Assembly: GCF_016592575.1 (NCBI RefSeq)
Contig: NZ_AP017470.1
Coordinates: 991,471-1,015,470 of the forward strand
Direction: 5' to 3'
Source of the DNA: Thermotomaculum hydrothermale
GTDB taxonomy: Bacteria > Acidobacteriota > Holophagae > Thermotomaculales > Thermotomaculaceae
Length of the DNA: 24,000 bases
The first letter of the stretch is position 1. Each line of letters starts with the position of its first letter. The position numbers and the translations under genes were made by a program. Under the pieces are notes generated by a model, which saw only the letters and a program-made list of their open reading frames with translations, made no database searches and had not been told where the DNA came from. Positions 7,212 to 17,423 of this stretch are shown in pieces.

Positions 7212-8216
7212 TTATTCGCTTATTTCTCCTGAAATATTTTTTAAAAAAAGCTTTTTTATCTCAGAAACATTATAATCTTTTGACAACAGGTACTGAAATT
7301 TCATTATTGCTGATTCAATAGTCATATCAAGGGCAGAAATTGCTCCTGCCTCTTTTGCTTTTCTACCACATTCGTACGCATCAAGGTTTATCTTCCCTCT
7401 CTTTGCCTGAGAGGTAATTATAACCGGAATACCTAATTCATTTGCCTCAATGATAAACGGTATAAGAGAATTTTCCAGAATGGGAATATTGCCTGTTGCA
7501 TATGCTTCGACAATTATTCCATCTGTATCATTGTTTAAAAAATGCCTGTAAATTGACGGATTTAATCCAGGAAAAGTCTTTATATGGACAATATTTTTTT
7601 CTTTTAGAAAATTGAACTCTATTTCTCCACCAAAAGATATAGGCATTATACAACGGTTGTTTAAATTAATTTCAACTCCAACAGTTGCAAGGTAAGGAAA
7701 ATTAGGGGAATCAAAGGCGTCAAAATCTCCACTTGAAACCTTTGTTGCCCTGTTTGCCCTCATCAACTTTGAATTAAAGCATATAGCAACCTCAGGAATA
7801 TCCATTGTGGCAAACTCCACCGCATTTATGAGGTTTAACCTTGCATCTGTTCTAATGTGTCTTAAAGGCTTCTGAGAGCCTGTTAAAATAATTGGCTTTT
7901 TGTTGTTCTTTATCAAAAAAGAAAGAGCAGAGCCAGAGTAAGCCATTGCATCTGTTCCGTGAATAATTACAAAACCATCATAAAGTTCGTAATTTTCTTT
8001 TATGACTTCAACAAGTTTGTTTATGTGTTTAATTGTTAAATTGGCACTATCAATGTTAAATGCAAAAACAGTTTCAATATCAGCAAGCTGATTTAACTCA
8101 GGGACAAAATTTACCACACTTTCCTGAAATTGAACAGGTTTCAAGCTATTATCTGGTTTACCTTCAGCCATTCCCAATGTGCCGCCTGTGTGTATCATTA
8201 AAATCTTTTTACTCAT
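7212..8216 (-). CDS. ansA: L-asparaginase, type I (cytoplasmic AnsA-like)
   Basis: 334 aa from the ATG at 8216, which sits behind GAGGTG. The track start at 8243 adds 9 unlikely residues. Catalytic-site motifs IHTGGTLGM and IIHGTDAM. Confidence 0.8.
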   Translation of the reverse strand: MSKKILMIHTGGTLGMAEGKPDNSLKPVQFQESVVNFVPELNQLADIETVFAFNIDSANLTIKHINKLVEVIKENYELYDGFVIIHGTDAMAYSGSALSFLIKNNKKPIILTGSQKPLRHIRTDARLNLINAVEFATMDIPEVAICFNSKLMRANRATKVSSGDFDAFDSPNFPYLATVGVEINLNNRCIMPISFGGEIEFNFLKEKNIVHIKTFPGLNPSIYRHFLNNDTDGIIVEAYATGNIPILENSLIPFIIEANELGIPVIITSQAKRGKINLDAYECGRKAKEAGAISALDMTIESAIMKFQYLLSKDYNVSEIKKLFLKNISGEISE

Positions 8217-8264
8217 TTTCACCTCGTTAAAACAGTTACCCACGATGAATAAATTTTTAAACTT

Positions 8265-8407
8265 TGAATTTTAGATTTTAAATTATGGATTCTGAATGTT
8301 GAATTATAGATTAAGGAAAAAATCAAATTAATTTCTACAAAGAGATACTTACTCATCAATCCAAAATCCAGCATCAAAAATCCAAAATTTTCAAACCCAA
8401 AACCTCA
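8265..8407 (-). other. Long imperfect inverted repeat (putative RNA hairpin) in the hslU-ansA spacer
   Basis: Core arms 8286-8312 and 8358-8384 give 20/27 Watson-Crick pairs. Four more become G-U pairs only in the minus-strand transcript. Outer arms 8265-8285 and 8385-8407 extend the pairing with bulges. Confidence 0.4.
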
Positions 8408-8452
8408 AACCTAAAACCCAGAACCCAATACCAAATACCTAAAACCCAACAC

Positions 8453-9823
8453 CTACAAAATATACTTTCCTACATCCTCTTTTGAAATTATCTCTTTCAG
8501 CTTATCTTCAACAAATTTCTTATCAACTGTAACAACAGTTCCGCTTAATTCAGGGCCTTTAAAAAGAATATCCTCAAGCAATTTTTCCATAATTGTATGA
8601 AGCCTTCTTGCCCCTATATTTTCAATTGAATCGTTTGCAATATAAGCATACTCTGCAATTGTTTCAATTGCCTCTTTTTCAAAAACAAGGCTTACATTTT
8701 CTGTTTCCATTAAAGCCTGATACTGCTTAATTAATGCATTCTTCGGCTGGGTTAAAATTTTAACAAAATCGTCTTTGGTTAATGAGTGCAACTCAACCCT
8801 TATTGGAAACCTACCCTGCAATTCAGGGATTAAATCAGATGGCTTTGCTATGTGAAACGCCCCTGCTGCAATAAACAAAATATGGTCTGTCCTAACAATG
8901 CCATACTTTGTTGGCACTGTTGAACCCTCAATAATAGGAAGTAAATCTCTCTGCACCCCTTCCCTGCTAACATCAGGGCCACTACCCCCTGATGAGCGTG
9001 AAGTAATCTTGTCTATTTCGTCTAAAAATATTATTCCGTTGTTTTCAGCAAGCTTTATAGCCTCTTCCTTTACCTTTTCCATATCAATCATCTTTTCTGC
9101 TTCTTCTTCGGTAAAAAAGTCAATAGCCTCTTTTACAGTCATTTCCCTGCTCTTCTTTTTGGGAGGCTCAAACAAACCGGAGAGCCCGTCTTTTAAATCC
9201 TCAAACATATCCATTGTTCCGCCTGCTACAATGTCAAAAATAACCTGAGGGCTTGCCTGTTTTTTTACTTCAACCTCTATTTTTCTATCATCAAACAGCC
9301 CGTTTTCAACATCTTTTCTCTTTTCCTCTCTTAAATTGATCATTCTTTCATAGTGGGGAAATCTTGGGTCATCACTGCTATCAGGCATTGATGGTGCTGG
9401 GAATAGAATATCTAAAACCCTGTCAATTGCCTTTTCCCTTGCCTGTTTTTGAATCTTTTTTGTATAAGTCTCCTTTACCATCTGAATGGCAACCCTTACA
9501 AGGTCTCTTATCATAGACTCAACATCCCTTCCAACATACCCCACTTCGGTAAATTTAGATGCTTCAACTTTCACAAAGGGGGCATTTGCAAGCTTGGCAA
9601 GCCTTCTTGCAATTTCAGTTTTACCAACCCCTGTTGGTCCTATCATAATTATGTTTTTGGGAGTAATCTCCTCTGCTAACTCTTTTGGAAGCTTTTGCCT
9701 TCTTATCCTGTTTCTCAAAGCAATTGCAACAGCCTTCTTTGCCTCATTTTGGCCAATAATATACTTATCAAGATGCTCAACTATCTCTCTTGGTAATAAC
9801 TCTTTTCTCTCTAACATTTTCAT
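8453..9823 (-). CDS. hslU: ATP-dependent protease ATPase subunit HslU
   Basis: 456 aa. N-terminus [29 protein letters not shown], Walker A GPTGVGKT, Walker [11 protein letters not shown], and a long charged I-domain insertion. Full-length HslU pattern. Confidence 0.95.
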
Positions 9824-14674: not shown

Positions 14675-17371
14675 TTACCTTCTAATCTTTCTCCTTAATG
14701 AGACAATTAATTGATAGGCAAGGTAAGAAACTGCAATTGAACCTATTGCGTATGCTGTTTTATACCCTGGAATGTGGTTTGCATTTTCAGAATTGGCAAT
14801 GGTTCTCCACGGCACAAAGAGTTTTGCAAATGAAGAAAAGAAGAAATCAAGGCCTGTAAAGAAAGTTTTAATAAAATGCTCAGTTGAAAAAGTCTGAAAA
14901 ATGCCAAAAATATAAATAACACATAAAGACAATAATAGATAAATCAAAAATTCAAGAAGTCTCCACCATTTTTTAAAATTAACAAGAGATAATGCAAAGA
15001 AGCACACCAGAAGAAACGGTAATAAAGTCCATAGAATGAAATAATAGTCTATTTTATTTAAGAAAAATAATTGAGTAAATTCATACAAACGCAAATATAG
15101 CTTGTCTTTATCGAGTAAATTAAAGAATGAAACATACATGGCAAAAAACAAAATCCACTTTAAAGGCCTAAACCAGTTTTGTGCAAAGTTTGAAGAAAGT
15201 TTTGATATACCAAAAATAAGTTTGTCTTCAAGTGAAGTTGATAAGAAATTTTTTAGGATAAAATAACTTTTATAAAAAAATCTCTTTAGAATACTTAAAT
15301 TTTGTTCGGCTAAATTTGAATTTCCATAATTTAAGTATCTCTCATAAGCCCTCATTTCAAGGGCATAAAAGTCTCCTCCGTGAATAAAGTCTTTTTGTTT
15401 ATCGTGAGCAAGTTTTAACTGCCTGTAAATATCCTGAGCCCTATCAGGCTCTTTTTCAAATAAATCCTTGCAAATCCTTTTCTCACTTACCTCTCCCCAC
15501 TTTGTATTTATAAATTCGGCATCTGAAATTGAACTATCTATAATATTGATTTCTTTTGCATTTGAAAAATCACAGTTTATAAAACGCATCTTGTTTAGGA
15601 TTGAATTGTTTATTTCAAAATATAACTCTTTATCTCCCTTAAAGTTAAGGTTAAAAATAACAAATTCTTTTGCATGGTTTGTTAAATTATTAAGTTTTAA
15701 AATTCCTATATTTATATTTTTCAATTCAATTTGTGCATTAGATGAAAATTGAGGATTAAAAATTTCAAGATGGTTAATTGATTTACCCTGAGAATCTATA
15801 ACAAATTTTGATTTTATTTCAACTGATTTGAAAATAATTGGATTGTTAAAATAAACTCCCCCAAAATCTGCATCTCCTTGAAATGTTGCTACCAAAAAAT
15901 CTGCATCTCCTTGAAATGTTGCTCCCAAAAAATTTGCATATTTTTGAAATGTTGCTCTCCAAAAATTTGCATATTTTTGAAATGTTGCTCTCCTAAAATT
16001 TGCATCTCCTTGAAATGTTGCTACAAAAAAATCTGTCTTTCCTTGAAATGTTGCTCTTTCAAAATCTGCTTCTCCTTGAAATGTTGCTCCCCAAAAATTT
16101 GCATACACTTGAAATGTTGCTCCCCAAAAATTTGCATATTTTTGAAATGTTGCTTCCCTAAAATTTGCATCTCCTTGAAATGTTGCTACCAAAAAATCTG
16201 CCTCTCCTTGAAATGTTGCTCCCCAAAAATTTGCATATTTTTGAAATGTTGCTCCCCAAAAATTTGCATATTTTTGAAATGTTGCTTCCCTAAAATTTGC
16301 ATCTCCTTGAAATGTTGCTTCCCTAAAATTTGCATCTCCTTGAAATGTTGCTCTTTCAAAATCTGCATCTCCTTGAAATGTTGCTCCCCAAAAATTTGCA
16401 TACACTTGAAATGTTGCTCCCCAAAAATTTGCATATTTTTGAAATGTTGCTTCCCTAAAATTTGCATCTCCTTGAAATGTTGCTACCAAAAAATCTGCAT
16501 CTCCTTGAAATGTTGCTCCCCAAAAATTTGCATACACTTGAAATGTTGCTCCCCTAAAATATGCATCTCCTTGAAATGTTGCATCCCCAAAATATACCTC
16601 TCCTTGAAATGTTGCGTGCATAAAATTTGCCTCTCCTCTAAATGTTGCATCCCCAAAATATGCCTCTCCTCTAAATGTTACATCCCCAAAATATGCCCAT
16701 CCTCTATATGTTGCATTCCGAAAATATGCCTCTCCTAGAAATGTTGCATCCCCAAAATTTAAATGCTTAATAAATTTACACTCTTCGCCTTCATACCAAA
16801 AATTAAAATCTTTTTTTAAAAAATTGTTTTCATCTCTAATATCATCATCAAATTCACTAAACTCAGGAAAAATTACCCACTTAAAATCATAATAATCTTT
16901 TTCCTCACTTTTATTTAGCAACTCTCTGTAATAATTAACCAGAGCTGTATCATAACTGACATTTTTCTCTATTTTTTCAGGGATTTCTTTTTCAGGGTAA
17001 TCAACTGCAAATCTGTAAGCCCTTATTCTTTTCCAGAATTCATTAATTAGGTTTTCTCTCCATTTTATAGAGAATTCTATATAAAATTCTTTTTTTTCTT
17101 TTCTGGCTTTTTCACGCTTCTCTTTCCATTCTTTGTACTCATCAATATTTTCTATCCAGATTTCGTTTTCTTTTTCGCAGTGGAAAATGCATGTTGTAAA
17201 TTTCTTTAGTTCATCTTTTGAAAGTGATTCAAGGGTTTCGTCATCTTTGAGGAATACAGCAATCGGCTCAATTACATTTCTATTTATTTCTTTACAAACC
17301 TCGCACTCATGGCTTTCAAGGCCTAAATCTCTTGCCTTTTCTTTGGTTAAATACTCTACCCTATAGCCCAT
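14675..17371 (-). CDS. Large membrane-anchored beta-solenoid-like repeat protein: N-terminal Cys/His module, 27 x 11-residue pentapeptide-like repeats, C-terminal multi-TM domain. Function unknown.
   Basis: Uninterrupted 898-aa ORF with AAGGA 6 nt before the ATG. aa 1-208 are soluble, with C23xxC26 and C61xxH64C65. aa 209-505 are 27 units of ATFxGxAxFxx. aa 506-625 are degenerate Asn/Ile-rich repeats. aa ~733-891 hold four to five hydrophobic helices ending in RRKIRR. Confidence 0.85.
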   Translation of the reverse strand: MGYRVEYLTKEKARDLGLESHECEVCKEINRNVIEPIAVFLKDDETLESLSKDELKKFTTCIFHCEKENEIWIENIDEYKEWKEKREKARKEKKEFYIEFSIKWRENLINEFWKRIRAYRFAVDYPEKEIPEKIEKNVSYDTALVNYYRELLNKSEEKDYYDFKWVIFPEFSEFDDDIRDENNFLKKDFNFWYEGEECKFIKHLNFGDATFLGEAYFRNATYRGWAYFGDVTFRGEAYFGDATFRGEANFMHATFQGEVYFGDATFQGDAYFRGATFQVYANFWGATFQGDADFLVATFQGDANFREATFQKYANFWGATFQVYANFWGATFQGDADFERATFQGDANFREATFQGDANFREATFQKYANFWGATFQKYANFWGATFQGEADFLVATFQGDANFREATFQKYANFWGATFQVYANFWGATFQGEADFERATFQGKTDFFVATFQGDANFRRATFQKYANFWRATFQKYANFLGATFQGDADFLVATFQGDADFGGVYFNNPIIFKSVEIKSKFVIDSQGKSINHLEIFNPQFSSNAQIELKNINIGILKLNNLTNHAKEFVIFNLNFKGDKELYFEINNSILNKMRFINCDFSNAKEINIIDSSISDAEFINTKWGEVSEKRICKDLFEKEPDRAQDIYRQLKLAHDKQKDFIHGGDFYALEMRAYERYLNYGNSNLAEQNLSILKRFFYKSYFILKNFLSTSLEDKLIFGISKLSSNFAQNWFRPLKWILFFAMYVSFFNLLDKDKLYLRLYEFTQLFFLNKIDYYFILWTLLPFLLVCFFALSLVNFKKWWRLLEFLIYLLLSLCVIYIFGIFQTFSTEHFIKTFFTGLDFFFSSFAKLFVPWRTIANSENANHIPGYKTAYAIGSIAVSYLAYQLIVSLRRKIRR
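15857..16747 (-). repeat. 33-bp in-frame tandem repeat array (27 units) with a 297-bp higher-order duplication
   Basis: The 12-mer TTGAAATGTTGC recurs 23 times at exactly 33-nt spacing (15878 to 16604). Many whole 33-mers are identical. Units 16220-16516 and 15923-16219 align with 15 mismatches over 297 nt by hand. Confidence 0.95.
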
Positions 17372-17394: not shown

Positions 17395-17423
17395 ATTATA
17401 TCAATAAGTTAGCATTGTGTAAA
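17395..17423 (-). promoter_or_regulatory. Candidate sigma70-type promoter of the repeat-protein gene
   Basis: On the minus strand: TTTACA, 17 nt, TATAAT, with the -10 ending 23 nt upstream of the ATG at 17371. Confidence 0.4.

Follow-up and report, generated by a model that had tools for sequence, protein, structure and literature searches.

The window analyzed here, a 24,000-nt stretch of the Thermotomaculum hydrothermale genome (contig NZ_AP017470.1 of assembly GCF_016592575.1, positions 991,471-1,015,470 of the forward strand; positions below follow window numbering), contains a gene for an 898-amino-acid (aa) protein at 14675-17371 on the minus strand, and within that gene a coding minisatellite of 27 head-to-tail, in-frame 33-bp units at 15857-16747. 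The array is likely the product of a recent, hierarchical amplification and encodes a predicted Pentapeptide_3-type beta-solenoid; the protein itself is probably cytoplasmic and anchored in the membrane. Its sequence is 100% identical, at full coverage, to the hypothetical protein TTHT_0956 of T. hydrothermale, a thermophilic member of the Holophagae (Acidobacteriota) that comes from the chimney of a deep-sea vent (Izumi et al. 2012, as cited in PMC5462960).

The locus had been singled out as an in-frame minisatellite from the letters of the window and a list of its open reading frames (ORFs), with Tandem Repeats Finder proposed as a check. That program returned a single dominant tandem array in the window, which it placed at 15856-16757 and scored at 1040, with 27.3 copies of a 33-nt period and 83% matches. 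On the minus strand, the segment 15857-16747 divides without remainder into 27 units of 33 nt, which keep the frame of the 898-aa ORF and encode residues 209-505, the region that also matches Pfam family PF13576; gain or loss of whole units preserves the reading frame, as the original prediction held. The 12-mer TTGAAATGTTGC is present in 23 copies, the first starting at 15878 and the last at 16604, with a spacing of exactly 33 nt throughout, just as first reported; the chance expectation is 0.02, and none of 100 dinucleotide-preserving shuffles reached 23. These are in-frame, head-to-tail units in the range of roughly 10-100 bp that defines a minisatellite, repeated well above chance. The 27 units fall into 18 distinct sequences, 16 unit pairs being identical, and the 33-mer quoted earlier as recurring verbatim was found four times, each copy exact. 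The unit consensus is ATFQGDANFRE, with the pattern ATFxxxAxFxx. T2 and F9 are invariant, A1 and F3 are each substituted once (F3 kept in 26/27) and A7 twice (kept in 25/27), and variation otherwise falls at unit positions 4, 5, 6, 8, 10, and 11.

The six promoter-proximal units had been described as much more diverged in both codons and residues. Unit comparison bears this out for the five 5'-proximal units (16583-16747, minus strand, residues 209-263), which differ at variable codons (Arg or Leu for Gln, Glu for Asp, Tyr for Asn), but not for the sixth (16550-16582), which is 2 nt from the commonest unit. Nor does the divergence reach the codons of conserved residues, same-residue codon pairs being identical in 69/69 cases among these five units and in 592/602 between them and the remaining units. 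Two degenerate units, KDFNFWYEGEE and CKFIKHLNFGD, precede the array (16748-16813, minus strand); identified in the unit listing and modeled as strands when the array region is folded alone, they are likely to cap the solenoid at its N-terminal end.

Superimposed on the 33-bp period is a higher-order repeat of nine units (297 bp). Block copy 1 (units 8-16, 16220-16516, minus strand) runs in the order LV, RE, KY-WG, VY-WG, ER, RE, RE, KY-WG, KY-WG, and block copy 2 (units 17-25, 15923-16219, minus strand) includes an odd unit, GKTDFFV (16022-16054), recognized by unit comparison. The duplication and its unit order had both been predicted and both hold, with 14 mismatches in 297 nt (95.3% identity) and not the 15 counted previously; that eight mismatches lie within one unit (GDANFRE in one copy, GKTDFFV in the other) and that a single change separates the copies over the 132 nt of their first four units was correctly stated. 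The odd unit is nearest to the LV-type unit 17, from which it is 3 nt apart. As expected of a higher-order repeat, identity is greater at a lag of nine units (95.3% over 297 bp) than at a lag of one (84.6%). When the order of units 6-27 was shuffled, only 2 of 2000 shuffles gave a nine-unit block with 14 or fewer mismatches, which argues that the block is a duplication and not a chance ordering. The block is itself composed of a 4-unit and a 5-unit sub-block, seen as exact 79-bp repeats at lags of 132 and 165, and the longest exact repeat in the array is 131 bp at a lag of 297. Units 26-27 (15857-15922, minus strand) are the start of a partial third copy according to the distance matrix, unit 26 being identical to unit 8 and an exact 58-bp repeat occurring at a lag of 594.

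Where two units encode the same residue, they also share the codon in 2400 of 2411 pairs (99.5%), compared with 51% expected from codon usage in the 13 other ORFs of the window. Glutamine is encoded by CAA in 23/23 cases in the array, and elsewhere by CAG (77%) more often than CAA (23%). In homologous arrays with at least six units, drawn from nine genome or metagenome loci and more, the same statistic is 0.70-0.88 (0.39-0.67 expected); the window array is the extreme of this comparison at 0.98. Codon identity so far beyond both the codon-usage expectation and the level of homologues points to recent amplification or homogenization as the source of the uniformity. It is thus strongly supported that the array carries a DNA-level legacy of recent duplication or conversion, as opposed to convergence from protein constraint, and the earlier inference of recent amplification at the DNA level, beyond protein selection alone, is sustained.

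A further claim, that synonymous positions are as conserved as replacement positions, does not survive, the silent positions being the more conserved. The two block copies are separated by 14 replacement and 0 silent changes, and a minimum spanning tree that joins all 18 unit types requires about 46 replacement and 2.8 silent changes (ratio about 4.3, binomial P = 0.004). The variable unit positions are the same as those that vary in 1892 units from 109 homologues, in which A1, T2, F3, A7, and F9 are conserved. Exposed residues therefore diversify, by selection or through lack of constraint, on a scaffold that is homogenized at the codon level. The unit type xYANFWG is nearly private to the window protein, occurring in 2 of the 1892 homologue units, which indicates that the unit types arose within the Thermotomaculum lineage. 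A history in which ancient unit types were kept by selection was rejected, given that the Tyr6/Trp10 combination is not associated in the homologue units.

The array belongs to the Pentapeptide_3 family (PF13576), which it matches in nine stretches with E = 7.3e-72 and 237.8 bits against a cut-off of 27. It has the hallmark of that family, aromatic residues alternately 6 and 5 apart in an 11-residue double unit with an Ala two residues before each. The match to PF00805 is marginal (24.5 bits vs 20.2, E = 2e-5), and no individual stretch passes alone. AlphaFold modeled the full-length protein with a predicted local distance difference test score (pLDDT) of 86, rising to 95-98 over the repeats, and modeled the array alone (m03805244c0c4, residues 187-527) with a pLDDT of 94.5, a predicted template modeling score of 0.91, and two short strands per unit. 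We read the unit, ATF-x-x / x-A-x-F-x-x, as one 5-residue and one 6-residue face of a beta-solenoid, with the fixed Ala and Phe residues pointing inward and the variable residues outward; two units, or 22 residues, presumably make up one coil. On these models the predicted fold class is a beta-solenoid related to the pentapeptide-repeat proteins. No sequence match was found among PDB chains even at E <= 10, and a Foldseek search with the array-only model gave no PDB structure at E <= 0.001; an 11-residue Pentapeptide_3 solenoid seems to be without a solved representative. A structural break at the odd unit GKTDFFV was considered because of a pLDDT dip at residues 446-454 of the full-length model, and was rejected as not robust, the dip being missing from the array-only model.

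The remainder of the protein frames the solenoid with a Cys/His domain on one side and an irregular beta-helix followed by a helical and membrane domain on the other, as delineated from the ORF, the identity to TTHT_0956, and the AlphaFold model. The N-terminal domain (residues 1-197; 16781-17371, minus strand) is defined by invariant columns and includes the family-invariant residues C23, C26, C61, and H64 (CxxC ... CxxH), probably a zinc site to judge from the motif, as well as FWKRIRAYRF (FWxRxRxYR in the family). Alignment and the AlphaFold model place the irregular beta-helix directly after the array (residues 506-632; 15476-15856, minus strand), where it starts with a degenerate unit, VYFNNPIIFKS, and carries the family-conserved motifs NNxxNxxKEF, MRFINCDFS, and WGEISExRIC. 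Residues 633-898 (14675-15475, minus strand), assigned by alignment, model, and hydrophobicity, comprise a helical region (DIYRQLK..FYALEMRAYE), a membrane domain with strongly hydrophobic segments at 779-797 and 806-824, and a basic tail, YQLIVSLRRKIRR; two further, weaker membrane helices are suggested in this C-terminal domain by the model and by inspection of the sequence. The flanking N- and C-terminal domains matched no Pfam, NCBIfam, or PADLOC family. The N-terminus is hydrophilic and has no signal peptide, and because hydrophobic helices lie at the C-terminus we infer that the solenoid is probably cytoplasmic and the protein membrane-anchored. The array has a net charge of -11 over its 297 residues.

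Two functional assignments were tried for the protein and rejected. A role in a defence system was dismissed because no PADLOC model matched the whole protein, the N-terminal domain, or the C-terminal half at E <= 1. A K+-channel pore (Ion_trans_2, PF07885) in the C-terminal domain was likewise discarded, as there was no PF07885 match even at E <= 10 and hhalign aligned only the first 33 columns, at a probability of 4%. In its C-terminal tail the window protein nevertheless lines up collinearly with Pentapeptide_3 relatives that do bear an Ion_trans_2 pore (P0014, P0027, P0030, P0107, and P0117). Shared or corresponding features are the FY..EM helix, GYGE.P set against SNFAQNWFRPL, the "pore-helix" position FSSFAKLF set against YFSFVTFTTLGYGD, and a basic end; a K+-channel filter motif of the TxGYGD type is absent from the tail of the window protein. 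To judge from these sequence features, the tail may be a degenerate channel domain.

Relatives were sought in 5.8 billion proteins, where 635 were found at E <= 0.001, and also in one genome per species and in JGI metagenomes; nearly all of the 120 listed carry a precomputed PF13576 assignment. The full architecture is common to 15 of the 120 best matches, and these carry about 9-37 units, so that unit number varies widely among homologues. The closest relatives found were a paralogue at 39% identity and, in other phyla, proteins at 30-58% identity, and the 90% identity cluster has the window protein as its single member. The paralogue, TTHT_0832 (P0002), is a full-length protein of 868 aa encoded in the same genome, outside the window. 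Its flanking domains are 57%, 62%, and 48% identical to those of the window protein and its array 37%, indicating a faster turnover in the arrays than in the remainder of the gene. The TTHT_0832 array is heterogeneous at the protein level, with a helical insert replacing part of the solenoid. Block structure recurs in other homologues: in the L004 array the unit TTFSQGANFGN is present in four identical copies, next to a block of 3 units elsewhere in that array, and the L001 array has a 4-unit block.

The same architecture, namely a Cys/His head followed by the 11-residue solenoid and by a membrane tail with YQxIxAxRRKVxR at its end, was found in loci L001-L033. The hosts are vent and hot-spring thermophiles of the Acidobacteriota, Aquificota, Thermotogota, WOR-3, and Campylobacterota, for example Persephonella, Desulfurobacterium, and Lebetimonas. 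The gene neighborhoods of the homologues are unrelated between loci and show no evident conserved partner. Its occurrence in unrelated phyla of one habitat and in differing neighborhoods suggests horizontal spread of the architecture among vent and hot-spring thermophiles.

Under the amplification model, the array would have been built recently in the Thermotomaculum lineage through misaligned recombination or replication slippage between units. Growth would have been hierarchical, from single units to 4- and 5-unit sub-blocks, then to a duplicated nine-unit (297-bp) block, and finally to a third copy that was only begun. The silent sites would be virtually identical because the units share one recent ancestor or because gene conversion keeps them alike, and the surviving differences, nearly all of them amino acid changes at exposed positions, would be those that selection keeps or favors, or those at positions free of constraint. 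Tandem direct repeats of such length are generally unstable, and since stretches as long as 131 bp recur exactly, blocks are expected on mechanistic grounds to be gained or lost again; we accordingly predict ongoing length polymorphism at this locus, for which the spread of about 9-37 units among homologues gives indirect support. Beta-solenoids rise by about 4.8 Å per coil. If two units form one coil, each unit gained or lost would alter the rod by half a coil, or about 2.4 Å, and a 297-bp block would add about 4.5 coils, or about 22 Å.

Several results weigh against this account or against parts of it. The replacement excess is a small count of non-independent changes that includes multi-nucleotide differences between unit types and comes from a spanning tree instead of a phylogeny. 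Removal of the eight-mismatch unit leaves 6 replacement and 0 silent changes between the block copies, which is not significant, and the contrast between codon columns is weak, 15/22 first and second codon positions being variable compared with 4/11 third positions. On the structural side, solved pentapeptide-repeat structures superpose poorly on the model. The top-ranked structures from Foldseek were QnrB1, AlbG, EfsQnr, and MfpA, with E values of at least 0.011, template modeling (TM) scores of 0.2-0.3, and root-mean-square deviations of 10-12 Å, and even the best, QnrB1 (E = 0.011), gave a TM of 0.21-0.29. Furthermore, the collections searched held no second strain or close orthologue, with nothing above 58% identity, so that ongoing change in length is predicted here, not observed. 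The unit count, lastly, rests on an assembly whose sequencing method was not found in the literature searched.

This last point bears on the possibility that near-identical repeats were collapsed or expanded during assembly, such that the unit count or the block duplication is not biological. The array invites such an error: it spans 891 bp in units of 33 bp, a 297-bp block is duplicated at 95% identity, and sequence recurs exactly over as much as 131 bp. Several contigs from metagenomes and metagenome-assembled genomes that carry homologues do start or stop inside their arrays (L016, L022, L023, and L029) or within about 70 codons of them (L006/L019, L012, and L027), with frame breaks at the array contig ends of L023 and L029. 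These breaks are suggestive of short-read assembly failure, in a comparison that has no control for the random truncation of short contigs. We nevertheless consider an assembly artefact unlikely. The source is a single contig of 2,317,141 bp, suggesting a finished genome, and the reading frame is intact across the 27 units and the whole 898-aa ORF. Fourteen positions distinguish the block copies, and the longest exact repeat is 131 bp, so reads or overlaps longer than about 135 nt should give a unique path. A collapse, moreover, would alter the count of units but leave the array itself, and its codon homogeneity, in place. Protein-level selection alone, by which an old array would be kept uniform through the needs of the solenoid and its codons alike through codon bias, finds some footing in the family-wide conservation of the invariant A, T, F, A, and F residues and in the excess of shared codons over expectation seen to some degree in all homologous arrays. 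It is nonetheless very improbable: neither the near-complete codon identity nor the exclusive use of the minor Gln codon CAA follows from codon usage, identity extends over entire 33-bp units and over stretches of 131 bp, and homologues under the same structural constraint reach no further than 0.70-0.88.

The array might instead be an adaptive contingency locus, a hypermutable switch of length or surface whose variants are selected, for instance by phage or a competing partner, in the manner of the variable surface proteins of pathogens. An in-frame repeat containing long exact repeats is what such a locus would require, and the excess of replacement over silent changes at exposed positions, the wide variation in unit number among homologues, and the presence of two diverged paralogues in one genome are all compatible with it. 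We think it quite unlikely, however, in view of the missing signal peptide, the C-terminal membrane helices, and the basic tail, which would put the solenoid in the cytoplasm and not on the cell surface, of the lack of matches to defence-system models, and of the housekeeping character of the neighboring genes (lepA and a MacB-type ABC exporter). Recent hierarchical amplification of the array remains the reading we prefer.

Among known systems the nearest are other PF13576 proteins ("Pentapeptide repeats, 9 copies"), many of them annotated as pentapeptide repeat-containing protein or YjbI, with which the window protein shares the alternating 5/6-residue spacing of Phe. It differs from them in the unusual length of its array (27-29 units) and in the DNA-level uniformity of that array, by far the highest, as well as in having flanking Cys/His and membrane domains that fall in no Pfam family. 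The canonical PF00805 proteins (MfpA, Qnr, AlbG, and Rfr) are right-handed quadrilateral beta-helices with 4 x 5 residues per coil. The array resembles these in its pattern of inward Ala and Phe residues, but its period is 11 (5 + 6) residues, or 33 bp, in contrast to the strict 5-residue A(D/N)LXX repeat. PF00805 proteins are also soluble, DNA-mimicking, and about 200 aa long, whereas the window protein is of about 900 aa and appears to be membrane-anchored.

More distant analogies concern the way in which the repeats are organized. In genes of the inaZ type, which encode ice-nucleation proteins, periods of 8, 16, and 48 codons form a hierarchy that can be compared with the one of 1, 4/5, and 9 units in the window array. 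The Pseudomonas borealis ice-nucleation protein has 65 tandem 16-residue repeats modeled as a beta-solenoid (PMC9418140). A long, regular solenoid built from many near-identical in-frame tandem units is common to both cases, although repeat, fold, and organism are unrelated, ice-nucleation proteins being water-organizing proteins of the outer membrane and the host of the window array a thermophile. In variable-number tandem repeats (VNTRs) of bacterial surface proteins and in satellite higher-order repeats, units measure tens of base pairs, blocks are more alike than adjacent units, and slippage or unequal recombination is expected. The window array has comparable in-frame units of tens of base pairs and multi-unit blocks, but unlike VNTR surface antigens its repeat domain is probably cytoplasmic, and the length polymorphism that defines a VNTR is here only predicted.

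The locus is an ordinary coding minisatellite with higher-order structure, in an uncharacterized but already catalogued solenoid protein. It offers a clean, quantifiable case of solenoid growth by hierarchical duplication, with identical silent sites and diverging exposed residues, and presents block duplication as an ordinary route of growth for such proteins. It also marks a site at which the reference assembly deserves scrutiny, and implies that unit counts in related genes from short-read metagenome-assembled genomes are unreliable. The analysis draws attention to an uncharacterized architecture in which a Pentapeptide_3 solenoid, highly variable in length, lies between a Cys/His head and a membrane domain, and the locus would be a natural experiment if the length of the rod matters for function. 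A bolder interpretation would make the rod a fast-evolving, positively selected cytoplasmic ruler of a vent-thermophile family, with an unsolved solenoid geometry, in which unit number sets the distance between head and membrane, block turnover is adaptive, and the ratio of about 4 reflects diversifying selection; we regard this interpretation as doubtful.

The gene lies between lepA (downstream) and an HlyD/ABC/MacB exporter operon (upstream), all on the minus strand. A promoter-like site, TTTACA-17 nt-TATAAT with an upstream TG (17395-17423, minus strand), stands 24 nt upstream of the ATG. It matches the consensus at 11/12 positions and is a consensus match only, the total number of promoter-like sites in the region equaling the shuffle expectation. 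An RNA element was rejected, there being no Rfam match within the window. Two ORFs that overlap the array were also rejected as genes: a plus-strand ORF at 15878-16738 (286 aa, "KCCSPKICI...") and an out-of-frame minus-strand ORF at 16186-16467 (93 aa, "MQILGKQHFK..."). Each is a stop-free alternative frame of the repeated unit, and the sense frame, which matches Pfam at E = 7e-72 and is kept in homologues, speaks against overlapping genes. Both could be called by an automatic annotator. Elsewhere in the window, about 13 imperfect telomere-like heptamers (AAACCCA, AATCCAA, AAACCTA) occupy 8358-8453, between an asparaginase gene (7212-8243, minus strand) and an AAA ATPase gene (8453-9823, minus strand).

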